Part shown: positions 9,752 to 60,296 of the stretch, piece by piece
Position numbering within the stretch: the stretch's first letter is position 1
Layout: the number at the start of each line of letters is the position of its first letter
NCBI GenBank assembly: GCA_001785985.1
Contig: MFVE01000005.1
Coordinates: 16,556 to 80,555, forward strand
DNA: 64,000 bases
Source: Candidatus Nomurabacteria bacterium RIFCSPLOWO2_01_FULL_42_17
GTDB lineage: Bacteria; Patescibacteriota; Minisyncoccia; Phycocordibacterales; UBA9973
Direction of reading: 5' to 3'
Program-made: the position numbers and the translations under genes
The notes under the pieces: generated by a model
Seen by the model: only the letters and a program-made list of their open reading frames with translations
What the model was told of the DNA's origin: nothing
Database searches by the model: none

Positions 9752-9774
9752 TACTGAGGCAAGACCTCAGTGTT

Positions 9775-11925
9775 CTATTTCGCGATCTGGGTGGCTTCTT
9801 CGAATTTTACAGAAAGGAGCTTGGAGGCGCCGTTCGTGCCGATGGTGACTCCATAGAGCACGCCGGCGCGAGACATCGTCTCGCGATTGTGAGTGACGAC
9901 GATGAGCTGAGAGTGTTTGGAAAGTTTTTCGAGCATATCTCCGTATTTGCGGGAATTTGATTCGTCGAGCGCCGCATCCGTCTCGTCCAAGACAAGAAAT
10001 GGCGGAGGGTTTACTTGCGACATTGCAAACAAAAGCGCGATGGACGTGAGCGATCTCTCGCCTCCAGAGAGAGCGTGAAGCTCTTTGACCTTTTTGTGTG
10101 GCAGAGAAACATTTATATCTATTCCCTGCTCTGGAACAGTTTCTTCCATTGCCTCGCCATAGCCTTCGGCGTCGGCGTCGGCGGGTTCGTCTAGATCATC
10201 TTCAATACTTTTTTTCCTCTTTTCTGGTACAACGACAGCCAAAGACCCTGTCCCCCCGCCAAACATCAGCGAGAAAAATTCTTGGAATTCAACATTTATT
10301 TTTTTAACGCCCTCTTTAAATTCCACATCTATTTTCTCTTTCAGATCGGCGATGAGTTTTTGCAAAGATTCGATGCTTTTAGTCAAATCTTCCATTTCTT
10401 TAACCAAAAATTCATCCCTCTCGGAAACTTCCTTAAATTCTTTCATAATTTCCGCGCCACTGCCCATACCCGCATCTTCCAACTTTATTTTTAGGCGTTC
10501 AATTTTTTTCTTTTGCTCTTCCGACGGATTATTTTCATTACTTTCTGTAATTTGATAATCCTTGTAAGCCAAAACTTCCTGTCCGATGAGCGCCACACCT
10601 TCCTTGATCTCATTATGAAATGCCTCCGCCCGGCTCTTAAGATTTGCTTCCTTTATGTGGACAAGTTCCAAGGCGGAAGATAACTCCTGATGCCTAACTT
10701 TAAAGCTAAATCTTTCTCGTTCCAAATCGCGCAAGTCTTCCATCTCTTTATTTATGGCCTGTTTTAACGCTTCTATCTGACTAGTCAAACTTTTTTCTTT
10801 ATTTTCTATCTCCCTCACTTGCGCCAAAATATCAGTTTGCGAGTTTTTTAATTCTATTAATTCTTTCTCGCTGTTTTCTCTATTTTCTATCTGTTCTTTG
10901 CTGATCTCGCCTAATTCTTTTCCACAAGTCGGACATCGGCCAGAAATTTTAACCCTGTTCGCTTTTGCTTCAATCATTCCTTCTATTCGCCCCAGTTTGC
11001 GCTCTAATTCGCTTTTTAACCCACGATTTTCATTTAATTTCTGCTCCACTATTTTTAATTCTGCTATTTTTTTGTTTCCCTGAGCGGAATTAGCATCTTC
11101 GGTGTGAGAAATTTTTACAGAAACATTTTTTAATTCATCCGTGATTGCCCTCTTTTCAGCTGATAAATTTTCCTTCTCTGCATCTAAATAAACACTTTCT
11201 TTTTTTAGATATTCTCTATAAAGAACACCTAACTCCTTTTGCATTTCTTTCACTTTCTCAAATTTTTCCACCTGTTTCTTCAAAAAATTCAAATGGGGAG
11301 CATTTTCTCGGCGCAACATTCCTACTTCTTTCATATTTTCTTCTGTCCTTTCCAATTTCCTGACAGAATCTTTTATTTTGTACTGGTAAATTTTGAGTCC
11401 GAGCGCGTCTTCCACCATTTCTTTTCTATCCTTTGGGCTGGCATTCAAAATCCTATCTGCTTCGCCCTGCGAGATGATGTGATGTCCGGATGAGCCGATG
11501 TTGACTGATGCCAAAAGATTGTGAATATCTTTTAGACGCACTTCCGTGCCATTTAAAATATATTTATTTAATCCATCTGAAAAAACTTCGCGAGAAATAC
11601 TGATCGTGTCATAATTTAAATTTATATTATCTCCTCCGTCATTTTCGAGCTTGAAAATCTTGTCAGAATTATCAAAATGGATCACGACGGACGCGCCCCT
11701 CCCTTTAGGTAGATTTTTAGACCCTTTAAAAATAAGATCCAGGCCCGACTTGCCGCGCATAGACTTCATCGACTGCTCGCCTAACACATAGCGGATAGCC
11801 TCCACCACGTTTGATTTCCCAGAGCCATTCGGACCGACGACGCAGACGATACTGTTCTCGAACTCCAAAATAGTTTTTTGAGCAAAAGATTTAAAGCCAT
11901 TTAATTCTAGTTTTTTGAGTCGCAT
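9775..11925 (-). CDS. SMC-family ATPase (716 aa) with SMC-type heads and a central CxxC zinc-hook in the coiled coil
   Basis: N-terminus MRLKKLELNGFKSFA…VVGPNGSGKSN (SMC Walker A). C-terminus LSGGERSLTSIALLFAM…LVLDETDAALD (ABC signature, Walker B/D-loop). Mid coiled coil has ISGRCPTCGKEL, a Rad50/SbcC-like hook. Confidence 0.75.
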   Translation of the reverse strand: MRLKKLELNGFKSFAQKTILEFENSIVCVVGPNGSGKSNVVEAIRYVLGEQSMKSMRGKSGLDLIFKGSKNLPKGRGASVVIHFDNSDKIFKLENDGGDNINLNYDTISISREVFSDGLNKYILNGTEVRLKDIHNLLASVNIGSSGHHIISQGEADRILNASPKDRKEMVEDALGLKIYQYKIKDSVRKLERTEENMKEVGMLRRENAPHLNFLKKQVEKFEKVKEMQKELGVLYREYLKKESVYLDAEKENLSAEKRAITDELKNVSVKISHTEDANSAQGNKKIAELKIVEQKLNENRGLKSELERKLGRIEGMIEAKANRVKISGRCPTCGKELGEISKEQIENRENSEKELIELKNSQTDILAQVREIENKEKSLTSQIEALKQAINKEMEDLRDLERERFSFKVRHQELSSALELVHIKEANLKSRAEAFHNEIKEGVALIGQEVLAYKDYQITESNENNPSEEQKKKIERLKIKLEDAGMGSGAEIMKEFKEVSERDEFLVKEMEDLTKSIESLQKLIADLKEKIDVEFKEGVKKINVEFQEFFSLMFGGGTGSLAVVVPEKRKKSIEDDLDEPADADAEGYGEAMEETVPEQGIDINVSLPHKKVKELHALSGGERSLTSIALLFAMSQVNPPPFLVLDETDAALDESNSRKYGDMLEKLSKHSQLIVVTHNRETMSRAGVLYGVTIGTNGASKLLSVKFEEATQIAK

Positions 11926-41686: not shown

Positions 41687-42880
41687 ATGCTTGCGCCAAA
41701 AAATAAATTGAATATCGCGATGGTCTGCGATCCGATCGGCAATAGCAAGGCTGGCGTAGTCGTCTCCACCCTGCGCTTTGGGAAATTATTGAAAGAGCGC
41801 GGACATCATGTCATCTTCATCGGCGCTCGATCTAAAGACCATAGAGAACACAGCGATTATAACGACATAAAAACTTATCGTTATCGCAGCATTCCCCTGC
41901 CGAAATCCGGCGGCTGGACTATGGCTTTCCCCAGAGTCAATGAAATAAAAAAAGTTTTGCAGGAAGAAAAAATCGATGTGGTTCATATAATTCTGCCGAT
42001 GATGGGCGGGCTCGTCGCCATCCTCGCGGCGCGCTCGCTCGGCATTAAGATCGTGGCTCATTCTCACTCCCAACCAGAAAATATTTTCGCGGAGATGCCC
42101 GGATTCATTCGCCCCATGCTTTATGCTCTCTGGAATAAATATCTGGCTTGGATATACAACAAGGCAGAATATATTATTTATCCTTCGGAAATGGCGCGCA
42201 AATTGTTGGAGAAATTGAATAAAAAGGAAAAAAAGACAGCCGTCATCAGCAACGGAATAAATACAGCAGAATTCAAACCTAGCGCAATCGGTGATTTTTA
42301 TAATCGATTCAAGATACCGGATAATTCGACCAAGTTATTATTTGTGGGACGACTGTTCCCAGAAAAATCCATCGACACTTTGATCAAAGCAATACCTTAT
42401 ATTAGACAAAAACACGTAGATACGCATGTGATGATAGTCGGCGCTGGCCATCTGCGAGCAAAGCTGGAAAAGTTGGCGCGGGAGCTGGAAGTCATCCAAC
42501 ATGTGACTTTTTTAGGCTTAGTCAGCGATGAAGATAAAGTCTTGGCCTACAACGCCTGCGACATATTCGTCTTGCCATCGATTGCCGAGCTAGAAGGCAT
42601 GGTAGTCTTGGAGGCGATGGCCTGCGGCAAGCCGATCATTATAGCGGATGCGGAGATGAGCGCGTCTAGATATTTTGTAGATGGCAACGGGTTTTTGTTT
42701 AAAAAGTACAATTATAAAGATCTGGCGGAACAAGCGCTAAAATTGATCCTAGACGCTGATCTGCGCAAAAAGCTGGGTGAAGTTAGTCTAGCGAATAGTA
42801 AAAATTACGATATTCATCAAAGCGTGGCCAAACTGGAAGAAGTCTATTACTCCGCCCTAAAAAACGAAGTGAGCCCCTGA
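41687..42880 (+). CDS. Glycosyltransferase family 4 (GT-B, group 1)
   Basis: 397 aa with a C-terminal GT4 EX7E region (…SIAELEGMVVLEAMACGKPII…). Confidence 0.85.
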   Translation: MLAPKNKLNIAMVCDPIGNSKAGVVVSTLRFGKLLKERGHHVIFIGARSKDHREHSDYNDIKTYRYRSIPLPKSGGWTMAFPRVNEIKKVLQEEKIDVVHIILPMMGGLVAILAARSLGIKIVAHSHSQPENIFAEMPGFIRPMLYALWNKYLAWIYNKAEYIIYPSEMARKLLEKLNKKEKKTAVISNGINTAEFKPSAIGDFYNRFKIPDNSTKLLFVGRLFPEKSIDTLIKAIPYIRQKHVDTHVMIVGAGHLRAKLEKLARELEVIQHVTFLGLVSDEDKVLAYNACDIFVLPSIAELEGMVVLEAMACGKPIIIADAEMSASRYFVDGNGFLFKKYNYKDLAEQALKLILDADLRKKLGEVSLANSKNYDIHQSVAKLEEVYYSALKNEVSP

Positions 42881-43710
42881 TGAAAGAATATCTTCTGAAA
42901 AATGAAATATACTACAGGACGAACGAATTTACCCCGGGCAAACTGACCTTGGTATTCATCCACGGAGTTTCCGGCTCCTCCTCGGCTTGGTGGCCGTATG
43001 AGAAAATATTCGAGAATGAACATCAGAATAAATATAATATTTTGACTTATGATATTCGCGGACATGGAAAATCAAAGAAATTTTTTCATTATTCTGATTA
43101 TCAAATAGAAAAATTCGCAGATGATCTCCATGATCTAGTGCTCCATCTAAACATTCCGAAATTTATTTTAATCAGCAATTCTTTTGGTGGGCTGATCCAT
43201 CTAGAATATCTAAAACTCTGGAGAGAAACTGTCATGGCGAATGTTTTTACTTCGCCGGAGATATATTTATACGAAACCTTCGTTGCAAAAATCATCAGAC
43301 CGGTCCTCAAAGGATTCACATGGATCCGAAGTCTTCTGCCTTTTAACCCCAAACCCCGCGGACATGTAGACTATAGCAAACATCTAAATTCGACCGACTG
43401 GGACATCAAGAGAAATTTGGCAGATATGATGAACACGACCCTGCTCGTGCATTTTTATACTCTTCGGCAATCTTTAATATTAAATCAAAAATACGAACTG
43501 GAAAAAATAAACGTTCCGACTCTGATCATCCATGGAGAAAAAGATTCAATGGTCCCCTTAAAAAAATCGATCAATATGTCGAAGGCAATAAAAGACTCCG
43601 AATTCATCAGCATCCAAAAGATTGATCATAACACCGCTCATAATGCTGTCAAAGAGATGTCAGAAGCGATAGAATCTTTTATTGAAAAGAATCGAAGTAT
43701 GCTAAAATAG
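42880..43710 (+). CDS. Alpha/beta-fold hydrolase
   Basis: LVFIHGVSGSS (oxyanion), nucleophile elbow ISNSFGG, and His near the C-terminus. Confidence 0.75.
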   Translation: MKEYLLKNEIYYRTNEFTPGKLTLVFIHGVSGSSSAWWPYEKIFENEHQNKYNILTYDIRGHGKSKKFFHYSDYQIEKFADDLHDLVLHLNIPKFILISNSFGGLIHLEYLKLWRETVMANVFTSPEIYLYETFVAKIIRPVLKGFTWIRSLLPFNPKPRGHVDYSKHLNSTDWDIKRNLADMMNTTLLVHFYTLRQSLILNQKYELEKINVPTLIIHGEKDSMVPLKKSINMSKAIKDSEFISIQKIDHNTAHNAVKEMSEAIESFIEKNRSMLK

Positions 43711-43714
43711 GCGT

Positions 43715-44353
43715 ATGGAAACTTATAAAAATCTTTTGACCAATAAAAATTTTCTCATATGTTTCTGCGGTGGCGTGATCTTGTTTGTCACGAGCTTGGT
43801 GGTGCAATTTTTTGTCAGCGGTTATGTGAATAGCCTGCCCACCGTGCCTGTGACAGATCTGATATTGAGCAATATCAGAGTCCACGACGTGGGCGGGATT
43901 TTTGTTTATGGATCAGTCTTGCTGTTTTTCTACGGCTTTTTATTGGGATTTAGACATCTCCACTACATGCCATTTGCCTTGAAGAGCGTGGGCCTTTTTA
44001 CTCTGATCCGATCTCTCTTTGTCATCCTCACCCATATCAGCGCTTTCCCGACTCGCATAGCCATCGAATCGCCTTTTTTTAACAATGCTCTTTTCAGCGG
44101 TATTTTCACCGGAAATGATCTCTTTTTCTCCGGACATACCGGACTGCCTTTTCTCTTGGCGCTAATGTTTTGGGAAAAGAAAAATATCAGAATAATTTTC
44201 CTCGGATTTTCTATTCTTTTTGCGATCGTCGTGCTCCTCGGGCATATCCATTATTCCATCGACGTCCTAGCGGCCTATTTCATCACCTACGGCATCTTTC
44301 AAATCTGTAAAGTTTTATTCAAGCAAGAATGGGCATTGTTCTTGAAGAAATAA
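43715..44353 (+). CDS. PAP2-superfamily-like integral membrane protein
   Basis: 5-6 TM segments. Motifs …SGHTG… and …HIHYSIDVLAAY… resemble the PAP2 C2/C3 boxes. Confidence 0.45.
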   Translation: METYKNLLTNKNFLICFCGGVILFVTSLVVQFFVSGYVNSLPTVPVTDLILSNIRVHDVGGIFVYGSVLLFFYGFLLGFRHLHYMPFALKSVGLFTLIRSLFVILTHISAFPTRIAIESPFFNNALFSGIFTGNDLFFSGHTGLPFLLALMFWEKKNIRIIFLGFSILFAIVVLLGHIHYSIDVLAAYFITYGIFQICKVLFKQEWALFLKK

Positions 44354-44556
44354 ATTTACTAGAAAAATTCAGACACCCTTTCTTGGCATACTTTTTATAA
44401 AGCAATCTATCTGGCACAGCTGTGCCAGCGAACTGCTCGTCGATCAAGAAAATAATAGAAAGAGTACTTTCTTTATTTTCTAATCTCCTGCGCAAGGCTT
44501 TCTAAAAAGTACGCCTGCGACGAGTAAGTCTGAATTTTTCTAGATTCTTTGGACTC

Positions 44557-44673
44557 TAGTGCAAGCAAAAGTGTTCTCTAAAATATCGTACGGAGAGGGG
44601 CGGGTCCGAAAGTCTTAGCAAATTTCAAGCCTAAAAATTATGCGGGTATTTTAGAGAATATTTTTGCTGGAAC
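44557..44673. repeat. Left arm of 117-bp inverted repeat bracketing the fibre cassette
   Basis: Reverse complement of 47741-47857 with 2 mismatches over 117 bp. Contains an internal 13-bp inverted repeat (TTCTCTAAAATA…TATTTTAGAGAA). Confidence 0.9.
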
Positions 44674-44676
44674 ATT

Positions 44677-47223
44677 TTAAATTTCTGGAGCGGGTTCTGT
44701 GGATTCAGAGTCCTCAACTACATCAGCCTCTGGTGCAGATGCTTCTTCCGATTCGGGTTCAGGTTCGGGAGTTACTTCAGGAGTAGATTCAGATTCCTCC
44801 GTCTCAGACGGAGGCGTTACCTCTGCATCAGAAACTTCAGAAGTTTCATCAGCCGGCTCGTCCACCGTCTCTTCCGCTACAGGCATTTCTTCATTGCTTT
44901 CTTGCTCAGAAGCCTGCCCTGTACCAGAGCTCTGCTCTTGGTTCGGGGAATTTCCATCATTTCCTAACATAGCATCCAGCTGACTTCTAGTATAGCAAGA
45001 AGTGCCGTTTGCATCTTTCAAACAAACTTCATCTAGAGTGGCCTTTTCTGCAAAGATATTTGTAATCCCATTCCCCACATCCCCCATCCAAGCAGTGAGT
45101 TTGGCATAGACATTGTCAAAGAAAGCAGTGACGAAAGATTGGTTAGATGAGCCTTCGAGCGGAGTGATGGTGCCAGAGATGGCGTTTAGGTTTAGATTGA
45201 GTTCATCTAGTTTGGTATTCGTCGCTTGGAGACCTAGCACCATATAGCCCAGAGTGTTCACAGGGTTCACGATGGTGCCTTTGTAGTGCATGGCCCAGGG
45301 TGCTTCATCTGCCATGACACCGACATATTCTGTGATGGTGTCTCCGGTTCCCATGCCTGGTTTGTAATGGAATTTATATATTTTGGTATTGAGGATTTGA
45401 GTGAGAGCTTCATTTGGATCATCTACTGTGCTAATGACGTCCTTTAATTCACGGGAAGAGGCAGCCGATGCCCAGGAAGTGATGCCGTCTCCTCCTGCAT
45501 CGGTGAGCTGTTGACCAGCAGAGCCTACTGCAGTGGGTAAGGTTAGAGTCCAGGTGCCAGCCGCTGCGGCTGTCTGCATTGTGACTACTCCAGATGTTCC
45601 TCCTGCTAAAGACATAGTACCTGCTCTGGAACCTGCTGTACCTAATGTAAGTAATGCGACCGGAGAATTATTTCCAATTCCGATTACTGCGTCTGTGTCT
45701 ACAGTGGTGCCAGTGGCATTTACGTTTAGGCCAAAAATTGTGTTGCCGATGACGAGCTGGTTGGAAGTTGTAGCCGAGGGAGCGTCAACATCATAACCTA
45801 TGATGAGATTATTAGAACCAGAAGTAATGGCATCACCTGCTCCTAAACCAATCGCAATATTATTATCCCCCGTCGTCACTGCCGTCAGAGCGTTGTATCC
45901 AAAAGCAGAGTTGTCATCTCCGCCGTTTGAGGTGTCAAGAGCGAGAGAACCGAAAGCGGAGTTGCGGGTGCCGGTTGTTTCTGTTGTCAGAACATTATAA
46001 CCAAAAGCAGAGTTATTGTCGGCGGTGGTATTAGCGTCAAGCGCCAAAGCTCCAAAAGCTGCATTTTGAGTGCCGGTTGTGTTGACACCCAAAACGTTAT
46101 AGCCAAAAGCGCTGTTGTTGTTGGCTGTAGTATTGGCACTAAGCGCAAAAGCTCCAACAGCTGTATTTTGAGTGCCAGTGGTGTTAGCATTAAGCGTAAA
46201 TGATCCGAAGGCTGAATTATTGTTGGCGGTGGTATTAGCACTAAGCGCTAAGGATCCAAATGCGGAATTTCTAATTCCAGTAGTATTAGCGCCCAAAACA
46301 TCGGGGCCAAAAGCTGCATTTTGAGTGCCAGTGGTGTTAGCGGTTAAAACATTATACCCAAAGGCAGAGTTTAAACTACCAGTGGTGTTGGCATCAAGTG
46401 CGAAAGATCCAAAGGCCGAGTTTGAACCACCGGTGGTGTTGGATATTAAAGCGTTATACCCGATCGCCACATTATCATCTCCCGTAGTGATAGCTGTGCC
46501 TGCATCAGCACCAACCGCCGTATTTCTTAATCCACTTGCAGCTGTAAGAGAATCAAGTGCGGTGCTTCCAAGAGCAGTGTTGCCATCGCCTGCAGAAGTT
46601 TGAGTAAAACCTGTAAGTGTTGCTCCATTCGGGATGGTGAGAGTTCCAGTGCTGGAGGTGATGGTGAGGCCGTTGATACTTGTAGCTGTGGCAACTCCAA
46701 GAACTGGAGTGACCAATGTCGGAGAAGTAGCTAAAACCAAAACCGTGCCACTGCCTGTGGTCGTCATTTCTCCGAGAACGCCAGCGTTGTTGTAGAGAAC
46801 TCTGCCGGATGTACCGCTGGTAATGGAAGTGGTGCCTACTGTGAGTCCGGTACTTAACGTCGCCCAAGTGAGTACTCCACTCCCATCCGTCTGCAGGTAT
46901 TGGCTAGCAGTACCGTCATCTGTGGGAAGAGTTAGAGTATATGTGCCAGCGATAGCAGCTGGTTGAATGATGATTTCACCAGAGGTACTGCCAGTGAGAG
47001 TGAGAAAATCTGTGGTGACTTCTGCTGCCATAGACTTGGCAAGACTTTGGACGTTGCTGTCGATTGAATTTAATGTTCCATTGAGTTGAGCGTCGAAGAA
47101 AGCTCGGGTGACGAATTGAGAGGGGTTTAGATTATCTGCCCCCCCCCCTCGGTCCTGCTGGACCTTGAATTCCCTGAGGGCCCATTGGTCCCTGGGGTCC
47201 TTGAGGTCCAGCGACGTAAACAA
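44677..47223 (-). CDS. Phage-tail-fibre-like surface protein with Gly/Asn-rich NTTGxxNxAFG repeats and C-terminal intramolecular-chaperone (Peptidase_S74/endosialidase chaperone) domain plus acidic tail. Probably the 3' part of a gene fused to 47132-47443 via a G10 tract.
   Basis: More than 12 tandem repeats (…NTTGTQNAAFG…). Ser-Lys dyad motif SSRELKDVIS…DDPNEALTQILNTKIYKFHYK typical of auto-cleaving tail-spike/fibre chaperone domains. The annotated Met start is probably not real. Confidence 0.75.
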   Translation of the reverse strand: MFTSLDLKDPRDQWALREFKVQQDRGGGADNLNPSQFVTRAFFDAQLNGTLNSIDSNVQSLAKSMAAEVTTDFLTLTGSTSGEIIIQPAAIAGTYTLTLPTDDGTASQYLQTDGSGVLTWATLSTGLTVGTTSITSGTSGRVLYNNAGVLGEMTTTGSGTVLVLATSPTLVTPVLGVATATSINGLTITSSTGTLTIPNGATLTGFTQTSAGDGNTALGSTALDSLTAASGLRNTAVGADAGTAITTGDDNVAIGYNALISNTTGGSNSAFGSFALDANTTGSLNSAFGYNVLTANTTGTQNAAFGPDVLGANTTGIRNSAFGSLALSANTTANNNSAFGSFTLNANTTGTQNTAVGAFALSANTTANNNSAFGYNVLGVNTTGTQNAAFGALALDANTTADNNSAFGYNVLTTETTGTRNSAFGSLALDTSNGGDDNSAFGYNALTAVTTGDNNIAIGLGAGDAITSGSNNLIIGYDVDAPSATTSNQLVIGNTIFGLNVNATGTTVDTDAVIGIGNNSPVALLTLGTAGSRAGTMSLAGGTSGVVTMQTAAAAGTWTLTLPTAVGSAGQQLTDAGGDGITSWASAASSRELKDVISTVDDPNEALTQILNTKIYKFHYKPGMGTGDTITEYVGVMADEAPWAMHYKGTIVNPVNTLGYMVLGLQATNTKLDELNLNLNAISGTITPLEGSSNQSFVTAFFDNVYAKLTAWMGDVGNGITNIFAEKATLDEVCLKDANGTSCYTRSQLDAMLGNDGNSPNQEQSSGTGQASEQESNEEMPVAEETVDEPADETSEVSDAEVTPPSETEESESTPEVTPEPEPESEEASAPEADVVEDSESTEPAPEI

Positions 47224-47443
47224 CAGGCTTTGTTGTGTTAGAGGAAGTGGGAGGTGCAGGAGGCGTAAGAATAGCAGGTGTTGGGACTGTCTTTACATAA
47301 TTCCTGAAGGCAGTGAGAAGCTCTGCGCTAGTAACAGCTTGTACTTTAACCGGAGAGAAGCTAAAAACAGAAAAAACCAAGATAAAAAATCCTAGTAATA
47401 TCTTTACTGACAGAAATTTTTTCCTGAATTCTTTTTGAATCAT
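47132..47443 (-). CDS. Signal-peptide + collagen-like (Gly-X-Y) N-terminal module of the fibre protein; terminates just after a G10 tract (frameshifted relative to 44677-47223)
   Basis: MIQKEFRKKFLSVKILLGFFILVFSVFSF (signal/TM) …GPQGPQGPMGPQGIQGPAGPRGGGR*. One fewer G would fuse it in frame to …ADNLNPSQFVTRAFF… of the fibre ORF. Confidence 0.65.
   Translation of the reverse strand: MIQKEFRKKFLSVKILLGFFILVFSVFSFSPVKVQAVTSAELLTAFRNYVKTVPTPAILTPPAPPTSSNTTKPVVYVAGPQGPQGPMGPQGIQGPAGPRGGGR
47139..47148. repeat. Homopolymeric C10/G10 tract at the junction of the collagen-like and fibre ORFs
   Basis: ctgCCCCCCCCCCtcgg is the longest G/C homopolymer in the window. Its length sets the reading frame between the two ORFs. 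Confidence 0.9.
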
Positions 47444-47446
47444 TTT

Positions 47447-47677
47447 TTATTTCAAGTTTTTTTCTATAATATCTACCCTCGTTTTTAGTTTGTTATAGTC
47501 TTCATATTTGACTTTGTTTAAAGACATATCGTCAAGCCTTCTATTTATCCCTCCAATATGATAAATCAAATTATTTTCAACTCTGGCCATATTTCTACTT
47601 GCTTCTTCAAAACCATTGGCAACCATAATTGCTAATTTATCAACGGTCATTTTTTTATTTTTTACGTCCTTCTTCAT
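47447..47677 (-). CDS. Hypothetical 76-aa protein, first gene of the fibre cassette
   Basis: ORF about 60 nt downstream of the right inverted repeat. Predicted helical/coiled-coil. No recognisable motif. Confidence 0.4.
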   Translation of the reverse strand: MKKDVKNKKMTVDKLAIMVANGFEEASRNMARVENNLIYHIGGINRRLDDMSLNKVKYEDYNKLKTRVDIIEKNLK

Positions 47678-47740
47678 ACAGGCAATTATATCATGGAAGT
47701 GTCATGAAAAGTATAAAAATGTGGATAACCCACACACCTA

Positions 47741-47857
47741 GTTCCAGCAAAAATATTCTCTAAAATACCCGCATAATTTTTAGGCTTGAAATTTGCTAAG
47801 ACTTTCGGACCCGCCCCTCTCCGTACGATATTTTATAGAACATTTTTGCTTGCACTA
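47741..47857. repeat. Right arm of 117-bp inverted repeat bracketing the fibre cassette
   Basis: See 44557-44673. Lies in the 5' leader/promoter region of the cassette operon. Confidence 0.9.
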
Positions 47858-47878
47858 GTCTGCGACGAGTTTGTAATT

Positions 47879-53056: not shown

Positions 53057-53121
53057 TCCATAAAAAAATTGATTATCTGATAACAGCATTTATTATACCA
53101 ACTGATAGTAAATAGCGCTAG

Positions 53122-53208
53122 CGGATGAGGTGAGATTCGAACTCACGGTCCTTTTTAGGGGACGGCGGTTTAGTAAACCGCTACCTTAAGCCACTCGGTC
53201 ACTCATCC
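53122..53208 (-). tRNA. Class II tRNA (Ser-like: long variable arm, discriminator G) with apparent anticodon ACU (loop UUACUAA)
   Basis: Reverse complement folds with acceptor GGAUGAG/CUCAUCC, D-stem ACC/GGU, anticodon stem GCGGU/ACCGC, variable arm GUCC…GGAC and T-arm GUGAG-UUCGAAU-CUCAC. The A34 anticodon is unusual, so the assignment is tentative. Confidence 0.55.
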
Positions 53209-56095: not shown

Positions 56096-57700
56096 CTATT
56101 CCTCTATCAGCCCTAACTTTACAAGTCTAGAACGAATCCCGCCGACTTGGCGACCAGTCTGCACAGAAATATTTTTTAGGGACTTTCCACTTTTAAACGC
56201 TTGCGCGACTTCTGTTTCTTCGATCTGCGTCCATTTTTTATAAGCATTTTGATGCTTCTCGCGGATTTGTTCTAGCCGACCAATTGCTGGCGCTTCTTTG
56301 ATTAAAGAACTTGTTTCAGGTTTCCATTTTCCACCCAAGGTGATGATAAAATTCTTTCGCATTTTTTCGTTATCTTCGGAGGAAATTCTCGCAAATACTT
56401 CGCAGGCTTGTTTCGACCCTTCTCGAAAAGCAACATCTTTTTCTAAAATCTGCGGATGAACTTTAAAAGCGCGCTCATTTATACCCAAAAGATAGAGACC
56501 CGACAAACGCCGCACCCGAGATAGCGCCACATATCCCTGCCCAAATTCAAACACTTCTGAAAGATCCATCACCGCGGCATCCATACTCATCCCCTGACTC
56601 TTGTGCACTGTGATGGCCCACGCCAGGCGCAATGGAACTTGGGTAATCTTCGCTTTGATTTTTCCATTTTCTTCAACACTCCAATCCATCGGCGCTACAG
56701 TTATATTTCTCCCATTTTTTGTTTTAATAATCGGGTATCCAGTAAATTGTTCAAACTCTATCACTGTCCCTAGTGTCCCATTCACAAATCTTTCTTTCGG
56801 GTTGTTTTTGGTGCACATCACCACGGCGCCCACTTTGAGTTCTAAATCCTCTGGAGAAAGACATCCCCTCTTGAGCGCCGAGATGATTGCTTCCCCACCG
56901 CTCGCAGTCATTAGAAAATGCTTTGATTCCATTTCTATTTTTCCGAGCATTCCCCCATTCACCTGATCCACATTAACATTATGCGAAAAAAGTTTCGGTA
57001 TATTTTCGGGAAAATCCATAGAGACGCTCATGCGCGAATGTATCTGATCAAGATGCGGCTTCTCCATACTACCGCGACGAATAGCGGACAAAACTGAAAG
57101 AAAATCCGCATCATCCTGTCTATGTTGCTCGGTGAGATAGCAGACAACAGGCGAGAGCCTCCGCCAAACATCCGAATCAAAAGCAAAACGCGTTTTATCT
57201 CTTATTCCCTTTGTTTCTTGTTTGATTAAACTTTGTTGCGCGCTTTTTTCATATAATCTTTTTTCTATGGGCGGAAGCTGAAAAAAGTCTCCAACTAAAA
57301 TAACCTGTAGGCCACCAAAAGGCAGGGCGCTCTGCTTGATCTCTCGGCAAACTGCATCAATCATCAATAGAGTTTCGGCTCGAAGCATTGACACCTCATC
57401 GATGATGAGGACGCGAGTTTTACCAATGCGTCTGTTGAGATATTCACTGCTCCCTATTTTATCTAAATCATATTTCGTCAGAGTTTCTTTTATGCCTATT
57501 CCGCTCCAAGAGTGTATGGTCATGCCACCGATATGAGTCGCCGCGATGCCAGTCGAAGCAGTGATAGCCGGCTCTATATCGCGAGCGCGCAAATATGAAA
57601 CAAATTGATTGATAGTATAAGTCTTGCCAGCGCCCGGTTCACCCGTCAGGAAAACATTCGCCCCGGTTTTTAGTATAGCCAACGCTTCATTTTGAGTCAT
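56096..57700 (-). CDS. Pif1/RecD-family (AAA_30 + UvrD_C_2) helicase with C-terminal HTH-like domain
   Basis: Walker A TGEPGAGKTY, Pif1 motifs (…LIIDEVSML…, …VGDFFQLPP…), and C-terminal …SLKNISVQTGRQVGGIRSRLVKLGL. Confidence 0.8.
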   Translation of the reverse strand: MTQNEALAILKTGANVFLTGEPGAGKTYTINQFVSYLRARDIEPAITASTGIAATHIGGMTIHSWSGIGIKETLTKYDLDKIGSSEYLNRRIGKTRVLIIDEVSMLRAETLLMIDAVCREIKQSALPFGGLQVILVGDFFQLPPIEKRLYEKSAQQSLIKQETKGIRDKTRFAFDSDVWRRLSPVVCYLTEQHRQDDADFLSVLSAIRRGSMEKPHLDQIHSRMSVSMDFPENIPKLFSHNVNVDQVNGGMLGKIEMESKHFLMTASGGEAIISALKRGCLSPEDLELKVGAVVMCTKNNPKERFVNGTLGTVIEFEQFTGYPIIKTKNGRNITVAPMDWSVEENGKIKAKITQVPLRLAWAITVHKSQGMSMDAAVMDLSEVFEFGQGYVALSRVRRLSGLYLLGINERAFKVHPQILEKDVAFREGSKQACEVFARISSEDNEKMRKNFIITLGGKWKPETSSLIKEAPAIGRLEQIREKHQNAYKKWTQIEETEVAQAFKSGKSLKNISVQTGRQVGGIRSRLVKLGLIEE

Positions 57701-58082
57701 GATTTTTTCTTAAACTAGATAAATATTCTTTTATTCTTTCTCTATCTTCATTTTCTTTATCGCCCTTAAAGTATATTTCAATATACATAAATTCAAATCT
57801 ATCATTGTGATAGGCGTAAATAATCCTAATATTTCTATTTCTCAAAGACTTACATAGTATACGCGCTTTTACTATCTTAACATTTTCATCACTATACATT
57901 GTTACAAAATTCTTGCCGAAACCTGTCGGATTTTCAAAAATAAAACGCTCAAATATTTTAATATCGTCATTTAAACTTCTAAATTTCTTAAGAAGCTGAT
58001 CAAACTCTTTTTTAAACTCGGGCAAGTAGTTAGAGTGGTTCATATTCTCCCACAGAAGTTTCTTCTGGTCGATAAAAAGCAA
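57687..58082 (-). CDS. Putative toxin of a toxin-antitoxin pair (small RelE/ParE-like-sized protein downstream of a Panacea-domain antitoxin)
   Basis: 131 aa, overlaps the upstream HTH-Panacea gene by 53 nt. Lys/Arg-rich core …RIIYAYHNDRFEFMYIEIYFKGDKENEDRE…. Confidence 0.4.
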   Translation of the reverse strand: MLFIDQKKLLWENMNHSNYLPEFKKEFDQLLKKFRSLNDDIKIFERFIFENPTGFGKNFVTMYSDENVKIVKARILCKSLRNRNIRIIYAYHNDRFEFMYIEIYFKGDKENEDRERIKEYLSSLRKNHDSK

Positions 58083-58821
58083 ACTCGTATTCCAATTGTT
58101 CTTTATCTTTTGCTATTTTCCAAGGAGTATCTATGTGCGATAATTCAGATATCTTTTTCGCTGTCATATCAGACAACCTATCAAGCTCCCAATCAATATG
58201 GGCAAGCTCCTGCGCTGACAAAGCTGAAAGATCAATACCAATATTGGGATTTATTAAATACTTCGTCTGGTCATATTGATAAAACTTACTTTTTATAGCT
58301 TCAACTTTACCATCATCCTCTAACTCTTTTATTATTTTAGAAAAAATCACTGGCGTAGGGCCATGAGTATTTTTGATATAACGTGCGCCTATTAACTGTT
58401 CATCAAATTTCTCATAATAATCAAAATCAATAAAATATAACAATTTATAAAGCACGGTCTGGCCAATGTTTGGCTTACCTCCTACTTTTGCAAGAATATA
58501 TAAAAGCACTTGTTTAAATTTTTCTACTCTCTCTTGTGGAACTGAAATACGGTCTGCTACTTTAGGGTTGATTTTTTTTATCTTCTTATCTTTTTTGAAA
58601 ATAACTTCAGGTGTAGAAACTTTGCCATTTTGAATATCTATAATAGAAATATCAAAAATACTACTCAACTCATCAGCTTCTTTCAAAGCAAGCTCTCTTT
58701 TCCCCTGTTCAAAGGCAATATATGAAGAACGGGAAATTCCCAACTTTTTTGCGATTTCCAACTGAGAAAAACCTCTCTCTATGCGAAGTGATTTAATAAA
58801 TGCAAAATATTTATTAGACAT
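58030..58821 (-). CDS. HTH (XRE/Cro-C1) + Panacea (DUF4065, SocA-like) domain antitoxin
   Basis: N-terminal …RGFSQLEIAKKLGISRSSYIAFEQGKR…. C-terminal …GKPNIGQTVLYKLLYFIDFDYYEKFDEQLIGARYIKNTHGPTP… typical of Panacea domains. Confidence 0.65.
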   Translation of the reverse strand: MSNKYFAFIKSLRIERGFSQLEIAKKLGISRSSYIAFEQGKRELALKEADELSSIFDISIIDIQNGKVSTPEVIFKKDKKIKKINPKVADRISVPQERVEKFKQVLLYILAKVGGKPNIGQTVLYKLLYFIDFDYYEKFDEQLIGARYIKNTHGPTPVIFSKIIKELEDDGKVEAIKSKFYQYDQTKYLINPNIGIDLSALSAQELAHIDWELDRLSDMTAKKISELSHIDTPWKIAKDKEQLEYEFAFYRPEETSVGEYEPL

Positions 58822-59560: not shown

Positions 59561-59633
59561 GTCCGCCCTCTTGGACTCGAACCAAGGACAAGACGAGTAT
59601 AAGTCGTCTGCTCTACCAACTGAGCTAAGGGCG
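59561..59633 (-). tRNA. tRNA-Ile (anticodon UAU) candidate
   Basis: Reverse complement folds with acceptor CCGCCCU/AGGGCGG, D-arm GCUC-AGUUGGUA-GAGC, anticodon stem GACGA/UCGUC, loop CUUAUAC, T-arm CUUGG-UUCGAGU-CCAAG and discriminator A. Confidence 0.75.
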
Positions 59634-60296
59634 GATATTATTACTAATTCGAGAAATATACTTAAGGCTCATCACTATATATTCCCACAAATCTCTATTA
59701 TCAAACATAACACAGCAAGTCCCTTTTCCAAAGCCATTTTTATAAGTTATTGAGCTTAATTTAGTCCTTTTAATATATGACTTTCTAAACTGACTGACTG
59801 GTATTTTAAGCTCTTTTGACCAAAAACCAATACTCTTTTTGATATTCATATCAGAATATAAATGCAATTTTATTTTTAAATTTTTTCTTTTAACATTAAA
59901 AAGTTCTAACCATTTGATGAAAAATTTAAGCATCGATGGATTTGTATTTGTAAGAACCACCGAACCCTTCTGCATTTTAGTACCTTCTCCCCAATATAAA
60001 AAGAGTCCTAATAAGAATATCTCCCGCTCAGAGAAAACACCTATATCTTTAGAAACTTTTTGAAAAACTTTTTCCAAACGAGCTTCTCTTTTCGCTCGCA
60101 TTGTATTCCTAAAACGCTCAATGCGAATAGGACTGTCTGCTTGCAATTCTCTAATTCTTTTTTCTGATAATGGCATATTGTAAAGCCACCCGCTTAAGGT
60201 GCTTTTGCTTATTCCAAGCTTATCTTTTATTTGGCTATAACTCATGCCTTTTCGGCGCATGATTAGAGCCTTTTGTTTGTCTAATTTCCTTGCCAT
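59625..60296 (-). CDS. HTH-domain protein with possible LAGLIDADG-like endonuclease motif (3' end abuts/overlaps tRNA-Ile)
   Basis: N-terminal resolvase-type HTH (…GMSYSQIKDKLGISKSTLSGW…). Central …IFLLGLFLYWGEGTK… resembles a single LAGLIDADG motif. Tentative. Confidence 0.3.
   Translation of the reverse strand: MARKLDKQKALIMRRKGMSYSQIKDKLGISKSTLSGWLYNMPLSEKRIRELQADSPIRIERFRNTMRAKREARLEKVFQKVSKDIGVFSEREIFLLGLFLYWGEGTKMQKGSVVLTNTNPSMLKFFIKWLELFNVKRKNLKIKLHLYSDMNIKKSIGFWSKELKIPVSQFRKSYIKRTKLSSITYKNGFGKGTCCVMFDNRDLWEYIVMSLKYISRISNNIRP

Follow-up and report, generated by a model that had tools for sequence, protein, structure and literature searches.

A single gene in the core chromosome of Candidatus Nomurabacteria RIFCSPLOWO2_01_FULL_42_17, an ultra-small CPR bacterium from groundwater, very probably encodes an exported tail-fibre-like protein with an S74 chaperone domain, which is cellular rather than part of a virion and belongs to a family of paralogs that swap modules. 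The gene was analysed in a 64-kb window, i.e., the whole stretch of DNA under study, taken from a chromosomal scaffold of 326 kb, and its features are collected in Table 1. An earlier note on this DNA had proposed S74 homology with a catalytic dyad, beta-helical repeats and a non-prophage chromosome, and every testable element of this interpretation has held.

Table 1 Features of the fibre gene and its flanks (positions in the 64-kb window)
Feature	Position	Strand	Basis or remark
118-nt hairpin-forming element, copy 2	44556..44673	.	begins 4 nt past the fibre stop codon
Acidic low-complexity tail, 91 aa plus stop codon	44677..44952	-	26 E, 5 D, 12 P, 14 S
Post-S74 module: helix, then Cys-x7-Cys beta-hairpin (…ATLDEVCLKDANGTSCYTRSQLD…)	44953..45171	-	AF2 prediction
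Peptidase_S74-type intramolecular chaperone domain, divergent 'GTGDxxTEYVGxMADEAPWAMH' subfamily	45172..45459	-	profiles, fold match
Pre-S74 region: capping-loop-like motif VIGIGNNSPVALLTLG and second junction module GVVTMQTAAAAGTWTLTLPTAVGSAGQQLTDAGGDGITSW	45460..45759	-	read from sequence
Central variable module, ~16 coils of a 17-residue repeat	45760..46581	-	periodicity, AF2, Foldseek
N-terminal stalk domain NLNPSQFVTRAFFDAQLNG…, including first junction module GEIIIQPAAIAGTYTLTLPTDDGTASQYLQTDGSGVLTW	46582..47136	-	conserved in relatives
G10 homopolymer (C10 on the + strand)	47139..47148	-	site of the +1 frameshift between 103-aa leader ORF and 848-codon fibre frame
Collagen-like segment, 7 Gly-X-Y triplets GPQGPQGPMGPQGIQGPAGPR	47147..47209	-	weak Pfam Collagen match
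Pro-rich linker with 'AELLTAFRNYV' motif	47210..47335	-	read from sequence
Sec-type signal peptide MIQKEFRKKFLSVKILLGFFILVFSVFSFSPVKVQA	47336..47443	-	V-Q-A before the predicted cleavage point
ORF76 (A2917_02265), small hypothetical protein	47447..47677	-	stop 3 nt before the fibre ATG
118-nt hairpin-forming element, copy 1	47741..47858	.	between the ATP-grasp gene stop and ORF76

The ORF of 848 aa starting at a TTG (44677..47223, minus strand) was confirmed as previously described, but its 5′ end is not a real start. Over its first ~28 codons, it traverses the collagen-like region of ORF 47132..47443(-) in the wrong frame; the start is an artefact, and the true N-terminus is this upstream ORF of 103 aa. 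The two ORFs meet at the G10 tract with an offset that corresponds to a +1 frameshift. They are one gene, split here by this frameshift, because the corresponding regions of the relatives L019, L001 and L016 are in a single frame and because removal of one G gives an uninterrupted ORF of 921 aa. In L019 and L001, which have full N-termini, and in L016, which unlike them is N-terminally truncated at a contig end, the series of signal peptide, linker, collagen and 'S(Q/N)FV(T/S)…' occupies one frame, and the homologous collagen segment runs in frame into the fibre.

The signal peptide was read from the sequence as a basic n-region, a hydrophobic core (Kyte-Doolittle 2.3-2.4) and an AXA-like site, and equivalent signal peptides are found in L019, L022 and L001. 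The linker motif recurs three to four times at the N-terminus of L022 (as xELFxAFKxYV), and the 103-aa ORF is named 'Collagen-like protein' in UniRef. The Pfam scan of the N-terminal region of the fibre gave no match. The stalk domain is conserved in the paralog P0001/L016 (85% amino acid identity, tblastn) and also in L019 and L001, and the junction module (YxLTLPxxDGxxGQYLQTDGSGxLSW) is shared with giant surface proteins of the Bdellovibrionales.

The presence of more than 12 Gly/Asn-rich beta-helix-like repeats, claimed earlier, could be substantiated by 14 N[STAI]A[FVLI]G motifs, of which 11 are spaced by exactly 17 residues. The repeat unit is N-[ST]-A-[FV]-G-x-x-A-L-x-A-N-T-T-G-x-x, and the self-identity of the region is 47% at a shift of 17 and 55% at a shift of 34, versus ~6-12% at other shifts. 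AF2 folds the repeats into a beta-solenoid with a strand every 17 residues (pLDDT 85-92). The best Foldseek matches of this model are to the Fusobacterium adhesin CbpF (9gh5_A, probability 1.00; 9gh4_A, probability 0.84), and the YadA-like head of BoaA is also listed; the TM scores of these matches are low (0.16-0.41). The central repeats are thus confidently predicted to be a beta-solenoid that would resemble the head domains of trimeric autotransporters. More than 5000 homologs of the repeat module were found, many of which are annotated as 'trimeric autotransporter adhesin' by JGI.

The possible likeness to the trimeric autotransporter heads (YadA-like; CbpF 9gh5, Burkholderia BoaA 3s6l) would lie in the similar single-chain beta-roll or solenoid of the central module. 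The period differs, being 17 residues here and 14 in the YadA-head repeat, and Pfam detected no YadA head, stalk or anchor in the fibre protein. An assignment to the type Vc autotransporters was rejected, as there is no C-terminal YadA-type beta-barrel, the C-terminus being an acidic low-complexity tail and S74 the sole Pfam match. CPR bacteria are not known to have an outer membrane.

The string AASSRELKDVISTVDDPNEALTQILNTKIYKFHYK, quoted earlier for its Ser-Lys spacing, was found in ORF 44677..47223(-). The predicted nucleophile is Ser589 (45457-45459) and the predicted general base Lys594 (45442-45444), with cleavage between Ala588 and Ser589; the positions of the two codons yield a spacing of i+5. 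The proposed Ser-Lys dyad with S74 spacing is therefore present, as S589-S-R-E-L-K594, and both residues are at least 90% conserved in the alignments A1 and A2. A search with the PF13884 HMM, suggested as a check, had a mixed outcome: it gave the only Pfam match of the protein, but the scores of 18.2 bits for the ORF and 21.0 bits for a 206-aa C-terminal piece lie below the Pfam gathering cutoff of 22 bits. The alignment to PF13884 puts Ser589 at profile position 1, and 13 of 21 close subfamily members match this profile at E<=0.01. Neither NCBIfam nor phmmer against PDB returned anything for the fibre protein.

Despite the sub-threshold Pfam score, homology to the S74 intramolecular chaperones was upheld by profile-profile, PDB profile and fold comparisons. 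In hhalign, the subfamily profile A2 aligned to the canonical SDxRxK S74 profile A6 over 104 columns, with a probability of 97.5% and an E value of 6.5e-12. The two best matches of the subfamily profile in PDB were a T5-like L-shaped tail fibre (8hqz_d) and the MyRF ICA (7dc3_A), each with E=0.001. The AF2 model of the C-terminal monomer (pLDDT 70.5) has an alpha/beta core followed by a long helix of 31 residues, in keeping with the S74 fold, whose terminal helix forms the trimeric coiled coil, and the top three Foldseek matches were all MyRF ICA chains (probability 1.00, TMt 0.53-0.55; next match, E 0.64). Confidence in the fold match is moderate, because only the monomer was modelled. Judged from these comparisons, the predicted homology of the domain to bona fide S74 domains holds.

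The region preceding the domain has a pLDDT of only ~30 as a monomer, which would fit an interdigitated trimer. Its motif VIGIGNNSPVALLTLG resembles the V-G-G/N-pi-x-x-P-x-x-x-L consensus of Bdellovibrio MAT (mosaic adhesive trimer) proteins and MyRF (PMC10769870), and the features by which MAT proteins are recognized, a beta-helical fibre with an S74 domain and a capping-loop motif, thus appear to be combined in this protein.

The S74 domain had been described as C-terminal; it is present, but it does not form the extreme C-terminus, since the post-S74 module and the acidic tail follow. In the AF2 model, the helix of the module spans residues 136-168 and the hairpin residues 173-186 of the modelled piece, the two 10-residue blocks covering 171-190 having pLDDT values of 85 and 89. 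The module is conserved in P0001, P0121, P0139, L017-L021 and P0078. A highly acidic tail of about 90 aa is indeed found (91 aa, 44680-44952, 31 Asp plus Glu, no Lys or Arg), but not directly after SSRELK, as 96 aa of S74-like domain and 73 aa of helix/Cys-hairpin module lie between the start of this motif and the tail. Similar Pro/Glu-rich tails occur in the CPR relatives L019, L022, L023, L026 and P0139. The 260 residues after the cleavage Ser are more than in 76% of the subfamily members, and therefore the C-terminal part may do more than chaperoning.

The same genome bin contains at least two paralogs (P0001/L016 and L017) with shared ends and differing centres. The ends of both have 83-87% nucleotide identity, while the centre is an LVIVD beta-propeller in P0001/L016 and a longer array of NTTG-type repeats in L017. 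A stretch of 136 nt in the region of the acidic tail is 99.3% identical to L017, and in the assembly L115 a patch is identical to the paralog. The fibre gene is thus a member of a small paralogous family in which the N- and C-terminal modules are kept and the central binding module is swapped.

It should be noted that cellular S74 fibres have already been described. The MAT fibres of Bdellovibrio are chromosomal, have a signal peptide and an S74 terminus, and self-cleave at S782 (Caulton et al. 2024, PMC10769870). As thousands of bacterial homologs exist in addition to these fibres, the combination found here is not unusual. The S74 subgroup of MAT proteins (Bd3182) shares with the Nomurabacteria gene the chromosomal location, the signal peptide, long fibres of phage-like beta-helical modules that would be trimeric here as well, an S74 chaperone/protease end with Ser-x4-Lys preceded by a 'VGxGxxxPxxxL' capping-loop-like motif, and several paralogs between which the adhesive modules are swapped; in both cases, the bacterium lives on other bacteria. 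The subgroup differs in having a conserved beta-rich N-domain of ~130 aa, where the present protein has a Pro-rich linker and seven collagen triplets; by inspection, the '(F/I)xYQG(Q/K)…' N-domain is absent from the fibre, while it is present in L004-L009 of the Bdellovibrionales and in P0076 and L034 of the CPR. Further differences are the divergent S74 subfamily with 164 additional residues after S74, the monoderm-like CPR host and the frameshift of the gene at G10.

The chaperone domains of phages (K1F endosialidase CIMCD 3GW6, T5 pb1 4UW8, T5-like 8hqz) are homologous, have the catalytic spacing and are likewise positioned directly after a fibre or beta-helix, 3gw6 being only a weak fold match (Foldseek rank 33, E 5.9). 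Unlike the genes of phage tail spikes, the present gene lies outside any virion gene cluster and has a secretion signal in place of a virion attachment domain, and the predicted fragment of ~260 aa is longer than the phage fragments of ~130-150 aa. The MyRF/Ndt80-type ICA (7dc3) is the best structural match and one of the two best PDB sequence matches, and also has an internal S74 domain with polypeptide after it. However, MyRF is eukaryotic, and its domain severs a transcription factor from the anchor in the membrane, whereas no transmembrane segment follows the domain here.

Read with G9 or G12, the gene would encode an exported protein of 921/922 aa with, in this order, the Sec signal peptide, the Pro-rich linker, a collagen-like triple-helix segment, the stalk, a beta-solenoid of ~16 coils, the pre-chaperone region, the Peptidase_S74-type chaperone, the helix/hairpin module and the acidic tail. 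By analogy with K1F endosialidase, T5 pb1, MyRF and Bdellovibrio Bd3182, we infer export, trimerisation, cleavage and adhesion of the fibre: after export, the S74 domain would bring three chains into register and template the trimeric fibre, the chain would then be cut before Ser589 by this residue itself, which Lys594 activates, and the release of a chaperone-plus-tail fragment of ~260 aa would expose the fibre tip. Alternatively, the S74-like domain might only trimerise without cutting, so that the helix/hairpin and the acidic tail stay on the mature fibre, e.g., as a spacer or as a cation- or cell-wall-binding tail. This would fit the more than 100 residues that follow the domain in 32 of the 167 subfamily proteins, some of which look functional (an Ig-like domain after S74 in L022, a second, canonical S74 copy in P0123 and P0131), as well as the Arg that is located one position earlier than in canonical domains (S-x-R-x-x-K versus S-D-x-R-x-K). 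We nevertheless regard it as unlikely: 159 of the 167 members have the pattern W…S-x4-K, and Ser and Lys at the catalytic spacing are hard to explain without catalysis. In addition, it is established that MyRF also cleaves at an internal S74 domain (PDB 7dc3).

A role as a tail fibre or tailspike of a virion was rejected, because Pfam analysis of 40 neighbouring ORFs revealed no phage module and because the N-terminus consists of signal peptide, linker and collagen and has no docking domain. The gene could also be a leftover without cellular role, either of a prophage or as a captured moron. The same S74 subfamily is represented in L099, a true structural module of a phage, where the major head protein gene lies on one side and the head-tail adaptor and tape-measure genes on the other, with a portal gene in the context, and the 17-residue repeat type is found in proteins with a phage T7 tail-fibre N-domain, e.g., P0003 (PF03906). 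The locus is, moreover, an insertion bracketed by 118-nt inverted repeats: the fibre gene is located in a variable islet adjoining type IV pilus genes, and ~6.4 kb including it are an insertion, since in related genomes the ATP-grasp gene abuts a VTT or ComF-like phosphoribosyltransferase gene, which is followed by pilM. Against such an origin stand the Sec signal peptide and collagen-like N-terminus in place of a virion-attachment domain, the family of at least three paralogs, the full-length relatives with signal peptides in other CPR contigs and the lack of any match in genomes of cultured phages. The earlier statement that no phage structural genes are nearby is true for the whole window, the 40 ORFs having cellular functions only, and the chromosomal, non-prophage setting is evident from the surrounding core genes (rpoB, RNase R, SMC, gyrB, pheS, ligA, recG, pif1, ftsH, tmRNA, type IV pilus genes and a two-component system). 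A phage leftover is thus very improbable; the gene product is a fibre of the cell, either secreted or on its surface, and not a virion part, and, by analogy, would most likely serve as an adhesin with which the bacterium attaches to host cells or to surfaces.

The G10 tract is the only G/C run of at least 7 nt in the window, where 0.02-0.03 runs of at least 10 nt are expected by chance. In the alignment with the paralog L016, the window has 10 extra nucleotides exactly at the G run. A tract of G9 or G12 gives the single long ORF, and G10 gives 103 aa and an orphan frame. As in phase-variable (contingency) genes, a long homopolymer in the 5′ coding region thus sets the frame. Because gain or loss of Gs by slipped-strand mispairing would switch the gene on, we regard the tract as a candidate switch for phase variation, with the gene currently in what would be the OFF frame. 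The poly-G contingency loci of Neisseria, Campylobacter, Haemophilus and Helicobacter (reviewed in PMC8355987 and PMC2831843) likewise have G/C homopolymers of at least 9 nt in the 5′ coding part of surface-protein genes, just after the signal peptide, with the tract length setting the reading frame. The present case differs from them in that one tract only was observed in the available sequence and that no length polymorphism was seen among three consensus assemblies; an exact-flank scan of metagenome contigs for the locus found nothing further.

That G10 is a genuine slipped-strand switch, which together with the module-swapping, patch-exchanging paralogs generates a stochastic, switchable repertoire of fibres for attachment to hosts or surfaces, is a tentative proposal of rather low probability. 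If true, it would represent a contingency-locus system in Patescibacteria, a group for which the searchable literature yielded no report of phase variation, and the fibre family would become a concrete candidate for the determinants by which Nomurabacteria recognize their hosts. Another possibility, which may well be considered though it is not probable, is a recently inactivated pseudogene, G10 being a fixed, irreversible loss of function in a fibre gene made redundant by its paralogs. The OFF-frame tract is present in all three assemblies of the population (this one, L115 and L116), the function could be covered by the other paralogs of the bin, none of the relatives compared has a homopolymer at the site, and no other long G/C tract was seen in the ~80 kb of this genome that were examined. 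A dead gene is, however, difficult to reconcile with 848 downstream codons that are still open and free of further lesions in all three assemblies, and with a tract that is unlikely by chance and, at 10 nt, so mutable by slipped-strand mispairing that reversion is expected at appreciable frequency. Finally, the tract might have been miscounted during sequencing or assembly, the real genome having G9 or G12 and an intact gene. Most sequencing platforms make errors in homopolymers of this length, the relatives are all in frame, and GenBank has two uncommented CDSs flanking the tract (A2917_02260 and, going by the accession numbering, presumably A2917_02255), which is what automatic gene calling would produce for a draft MAG. 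Yet exactly ten Gs were found in three assemblies with slightly differing consensus (99.91-99.95% identity), which, provided that these rest on independent reads, speaks against a miscount, an explanation that we regard as unlikely.

The two copies of the 118-nt element that flank the fibre gene are inverted partners, with arms that are 98% complementary and 3067 nt apart. Each copy has terminal inverted repeats of 27 nt, and the RNA of copy 2 has a predicted MFE of -36.8 kcal/mol (+ strand). Only these two copies are present in the window and none beside the paralogs, and the element matched no Rfam family. ORF76 matched neither Pfam nor NCBIfam and is not conserved upstream of the relatives. 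A TATAAT sequence (47685-47690) is located 7 nt upstream of its ATG, and the assembly L116 has a nonsense variant in this ORF.

The earlier note had placed the tail-fibre-like protein at 44677-47223, and an open reading frame of 848 codons is indeed present there, but the gene boundaries drawn from it are wrong, the real N-terminus lying in a different frame in an overlapping 103-aa ORF directly upstream. This leader ORF encodes a typical Sec signal peptide (MIQKEFRKKFLSVKILLGFFILVFSVFSFSPVKVQA), a Pro-rich linker and seven collagen triplets (GPQGPQGPMGPQGIQGPAGPR), and then reads via a run of ten G residues (G10) to a stop; the first ~28 codons of the 848-codon ORF are the same collagen region out of frame. 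One G fewer or two more result in a single ORF of 921 or 922 aa, which reads …GPAGPRGGADNLNPSQF… across the junction. The region is uninterrupted, in one frame, in the full-length relatives L019 (1694 aa; signal peptide, linker, GPQGPQGLQGPQGPRGPTG and NLDSSQFV…) and L001 (…GPQGPQGPQGPTGPRGERGPSG-DSVDMSSFVTRTLFDAQTNG…) as well as in the paralog L016 (…GPRGPSGNVDTSNFVTRAFFDAQLNG…), and a DNA alignment with L016 places exactly 10 additional bases in the window, at the G run. By these four comparisons, the fused form is ancestral. As the G10 tract splits the gene, it appears, from the numbering of the accessions, to have been deposited as two separate 'hypothetical' CDSs, which may serve as a lesson for annotation.

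Features of the fibre locus and of other regions of the window
Feature	Coordinates	Strand	Locus tag / accession	Remarks
Fibre ORF	44677..47223	-	presumably A2917_02255 / OGI95366.1	848 codons, TTG start
Leader ORF	47132..47443	-	A2917_02260 / OGI95367.1	103 aa; UniRef name 'Collagen-like protein'
G10 tract	47139-47148
S74-type domain	45172-45459	-
Ser589 codon	45457-45459	-		predicted nucleophile; Ser662 in fused numbering
Lys594 codon	45442-45444	-		predicted general base; Lys667 in fused numbering
Substitutions in L115	45367-45399			eight, inside S74 domain
ORF76	47447-47677	-	A2917_02265	small hypothetical ORF
Nonsense variant in L116	47605			GAA->TAA in ORF76
TATAAT	47685-47690			7 nt upstream of ORF76 ATG
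Inverted elements	44556-44673 and 47741-47858			118 nt each, 98% complementary, 3067 nt apart
Insertion beside pilus locus	41687-47858			~6.4 kb
PAP2-like gene			A2917_02250
HTH + SocA/Panacea antitoxin-domain protein	58030-58821
ORF overlapping the latter	57687-58082			131 aa
tRNA-Ser	53121-53208			unusual anticodon ACT (ARAGORN)
tRNA-Ile	59561-59634			anticodon TAT (ARAGORN)

With the boundaries corrected, the interpretation of the C-terminal part as an S74 chaperone domain was supported overall. The SSRELK… string is present, and PF13884 is the only Pfam match, but with 18.2 bits for the ORF and 21.0 bits for the isolated piece it stays below the gathering score of 22, so that the Pfam evidence alone is marginal and the question was settled by family-level evidence. 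A search of a representative library retrieved 903 cluster representatives at E<=1e-3 (478 at E<=1e-10), which define a divergent subfamily (…GTGDxxTEYVGxMADEAPWAMH…IVNPVNTLGY…). The proposed Ser/Lys dyad is conserved: each residue is at least 90% conserved in the alignments, and the pattern W…S-x4-K is present in 159 of 167 members, the remaining eight being mostly truncated; among the close relatives, 13 of 21 match PF13884 (E<=0.01). When the subfamily profile was compared with all PDB sequences, the top two matches were a T5-like L-shaped tail fibre (8hqz) and the MyRF ICA (7dc3), with E=0.001 each, and hhalign against 16 canonical S74 domains from PF13884-positive proteins, every one with SDxRxK, gave a probability of 97.5% (E 6.5e-12, 104 columns). 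The Arg is located at +2 from the Ser, versus +3 in the canonical motif, which is why HMMER and hhalign shift the first few columns by one. A single-sequence phmmer search of the PDB sequences with the C-terminal 230 aa retrieved nothing even at E<=10, and a profile is thus needed; an NCBIfam scan of the fused protein had no match. The AlphaFold2 model of residues 560-765 (pLDDT 70.5) has an alpha/beta core followed by a 31-residue helix, and its top three Foldseek matches in the PDB are three MyRF ICA chains (prob 1.00, TM 0.53-0.55 on target), the following match having an E of 0.64. S74 homology can be regarded as established, and catalysis by the fibre protein as likely. It should be noted that two short relatives (P0123, P0131) have tandem S74-type domains, a divergent one with 'DEAPWAMH' and then a canonical one with SxxxxK…GFI(S/A)EDVP.

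The repeats preceding this domain are real and strongly periodic, with 14 N-[STAI]-A-[FVLI]-G motifs, of which 11 are spaced at intervals of exactly 17 residues, and a self-identity of 47% at a shift of 17 and 55% at a shift of 34, compared with ~6-12% at other shifts. The model predicts for them, with high confidence (pLDDT 85-92, pTM 0.71), a regular solenoid to which each repeat contributes one strand. Among solved structures this is matched best by CbpF, a trimeric adhesin of Fusobacterium, in its head (9gh5_A, prob 1.00; 9gh4_A, prob 0.84); left-handed beta-helices matched with much lower scores, and the YadA-like head of BoaA was also listed. Pfam searches with the N-domain alone and the repeat region alone had no match at E<=10. 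More than 5000 database proteins share the 17-residue repeats, and about three quarters of the best 120 homologs also contain PF13884, several having a phage T7 tail-fibre N-domain. The central part is flanked on each side by a copy of a ~40-residue 'junction' module (consensus G-x-I/V-x-x-Q-x-A-A-x-A-G-T-Y/W-T-L-T-L-P-T-…-Q-x-L-x-T-D-G-x-G-x-L/T-x-W), which also occurs in giant surface proteins of Bdellovibrionales, and a scan of GTDB genomes with the N-domain found only distant sharers of modules. The 100 residues before Ser589 were poorly modelled as a monomer (pLDDT ~30), which would agree with an interdigitated triple beta-helix like the one found ahead of S74 in known structures. Within this stretch lies VIGIGNNSPVALLTLG, similar to the capping-loop consensus that has been reported for MyRF and the MAT proteins of Bdellovibrio (PMC10769870).

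The acidic tail was confirmed in its composition (31 Asp+Glu and no Lys/Arg in the last 91 residues) but not in its placement directly after the SSRELK motif, from which it is separated by a 96-aa domain and a 73-aa module. In 127 of the 167 subfamily proteins, no more than 30 residues follow the S74 domain, and the window protein is of the type, represented by 32, with more than 100 residues beyond it. Here it consists of a predicted helix and Cys-x7-Cys beta-hairpin and then the acidic tail; the hairpin is confidently predicted, the two 10-residue blocks that span positions 171-190 of the modelled piece having a pLDDT of 85 and 89. The helix/hairpin module is kept in the paralogs and in P0121, L018-L021, P0078 and P0139, and in the last of these, from a Parcubacteria genome, it comes after a canonical S74 domain and is therefore an independent mark of the position 'after S74'. 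Pro/Glu-rich tails are common among CPR relatives, and in one of these (L022, 2478 aa) an Ig-like/HYR-like domain and a Pro/Glu-rich tail lie beyond the S74 domain. The region past the cleavage site may thus have a function of its own in this clade.

Exact sequence matches assign the window to a 326,489-bp contig of Candidatus Nomurabacteria bacterium RIFCSPLOWO2_01_FULL_42_17, and it is core chromosome in its entirety. It carries genes of information processing and maintenance (rpoB, RNase R, SMC, nusB, gyrB, pheS, ligA, recG, pif1, ftsH, tmRNA), a complete type IV pilus cluster (pilM/pilO/pilB/pilT/pilC), comF-like, VTT, GT4, alpha/beta hydrolase, PAP2 and ATP-grasp enzyme genes, a two-component system and FIST; the absence of phage structural genes near the fibre gene extends to zero phage genes in the whole 64 kb. 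In three genomes of related Nomurabacteria/Parcubacteria, the gene immediately after the ATP-grasp gene is VTT (locus L117) or that of the ComF-like phosphoribosyltransferase (L118-L120), with pilM as the next, and ~6.4 kb of the window are therefore an insertion beside the pilus locus, a variable islet that holds GT4, alpha/beta hydrolase and PAP2-like genes and the fibre cassette.

Relatives of the same S74 subfamily occur in 19 uncultivated viral contigs, most matches having 45-58% identity over the domain. In one of 56 kb (L099), the S74 gene (8825-10384, 54% identity) has the gene for the major head protein on one side and that for the head-tail adaptor on the other, the portal lying upstream and the tape-measure downstream, and its product matches a tail-fibre PHROG; this contig is possibly a CPR phage, likely to have been donor or recipient of the module. 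Viral relatives were found only in such uncultivated contigs, and a tblastn search of 50,697 deposited phage genomes with the C-terminal piece had no match. The S74 module is thus common to phages, plausibly CPR phages, and CPR chromosomes, and the copy in the window is cellular because it has a secretion signal, chromosomal neighbours and paralogs.

These paralogs are at least two and lie on Ga0155678_14 (L016, encoding P0001 = A2917_01120) and Ga0155678_13 (L017). Their assignment to a sister species was rejected since an exact-protein match placed them in the same genome bin, and they are therefore paralogs. Each has N- and/or C-terminal modules in common with the window gene (83-87% nucleotide identity), and over 136 nt of the acidic tail the identity to L017 reaches 99.3%. 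It is in the centres that they diverge, with LVIVD/beta-propeller repeats in P0001 and a longer NTTG-type repeat array (at least 1377 aa) in L017. Both contigs break off within the 5' part of the gene, which is to be expected where paralogs have sequence in common. A further assembly of this population, L115, has only eight substitutions relative to the window, and the patch that contains them (8039-8077) is identical to P0001 (L016 2399-2437), so that the fibre paralogs have undergone gene conversion or the assembly is chimeric.

The G10 tract is the only G/C homopolymer of at least seven nucleotides in the window, for which base or dinucleotide composition predicts 0.02-0.03 runs of ten or more, and it has the same length, corresponding to the OFF frame, in all three assemblies of the population (the window, L115 and L116; 99.91-99.95% identical). 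A phase variation switch is a possible, if doubtful, explanation: classical poly-G contingency loci are matched by the tract in its length, in being the only one in the window and in lying shortly behind the signal peptide of a gene for a surface protein, and the 848 codons downstream remain open. The identical OFF length in the three assemblies suits a recent pseudogene, a tentative reading also favoured in that paralogs could compensate and relatives lack the tract at this site. In 1 Mb of related loci there are 11 G/C tracts of at least eight nucleotides, none of which occupies the corresponding position in a fibre gene; those examined were for the most part in unrelated sequence of higher GC content. 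A miscounted run is less probable because the three assemblies agree, though these may not rest on independent reads, and the remaining probability falls to mixtures, for example transcriptional or ribosomal slippage on the G run. A search of metagenome contigs for the exact flanks with a variable gap over the tract gave 0 matches. In another relative (L049, 610-617), an in-frame G8 run encodes part of 'DAGGDG' just ahead of the S74 motif, and thus Gly-rich fibre sequences can create G tracts with the frame kept. Length variability of the G10 tract would speak for phase variation in this phylum; without it, the protein would be an ordinary member of a very large, already recognised class. Many homologs are labelled 'tail fiber domain-containing protein', 'Chaperone of endosialidase' or 'trimeric autotransporter adhesin' in databases.

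From the established biology of S74 proteins (K1F endosialidase, T5 pb1, MyRF, Bd3182), we infer that the fibre chain would be exported by Sec, that the S74 domain would nucleate a homotrimer at the C-terminus, after which the fibre would zip up, and that self-cleavage ahead of Ser589 would free a fragment of ~260 aa. If cleavage occurs, the post-S74 extension would depart with the chaperone, leaving a mature fibre of ~625 residues, the solenoid module of which might bind a ligand on a host cell or a surface. A trimer is consistent with three separate trimer-prone modules, namely the collagen triplets, the solenoid resembling the heads of trimeric autotransporter adhesins, and S74. The fibre protein has no LPXTG, no C-terminal anchor and no beta-barrel, and for want of an anchor it is no trimeric autotransporter; neither is it a virion tail fibre, since both the gene context and a docking domain are lacking. 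The closest described system is the S74 subgroup of the Bdellovibrio MAT fibres, which are chromosomal, trimeric and self-cleaving, with a signal peptide, an S74 terminus, multiple paralogs and mosaic tips (PMC10769870). The window protein would work like one of these, but it is devoid of the MAT N-domain, and its S74 subfamily is divergent, with a long extension.

CPR/Patescibacteria are thought to live attached to other cells, and to our knowledge almost nothing is known of their host recognition outside Saccharibacteria; a literature search found no paper on phase variation, S74 fibres or tail fibres in Patescibacteria. The Nomurabacteria genome, whose coding capacity is very limited, retains several probably secreted, S74-chaperone-based, tail-fibre-like putative adhesins, predicted to be trimeric, with exchangeable binding modules and adjoining type IV pilus genes. 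In parallel to the MAT fibres, by which Bdellovibrio recognises prey, they are testable candidates for host-specificity determinants, and the main interest lies in the question of the G10 switch and in a family of cassette-swapping paralogs in a CPR bacterium.

The fibre gene and ORF76 are bracketed exactly by the two 118-nt inverted elements, the only copies within the window, each forming a long hairpin (MFE -36.8 kcal/mol) and carrying inverted repeats of 27 nt at its ends. The element is absent beside the paralogs and from the viral contigs and has no meaningful Rfam match, so that a known RNA or mobile element was rejected; the pair could be a MITE-like element, a terminator pair or a substrate for cassette inversion. 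An expression inverton is unlikely because the promoter-like TATAAT and a terminator-like hairpin are both inside the bracketed segment. The proximity of this TATAAT to the ORF76 start suggests a leaderless transcript. ORF76 was rejected as a conserved fibre partner or chaperone, as it is not upstream of any relative and is truncated by the nonsense variant in L116; it may therefore be dispensable or no real gene. Elsewhere in the window, the overlapping ORFs at 57687-58821, between pif1 and tRNA-Ile, may form a toxin-antitoxin pair, and the tRNA-Ser(ACT) adjoins a divergently oriented tRNA-Ser(GCT).
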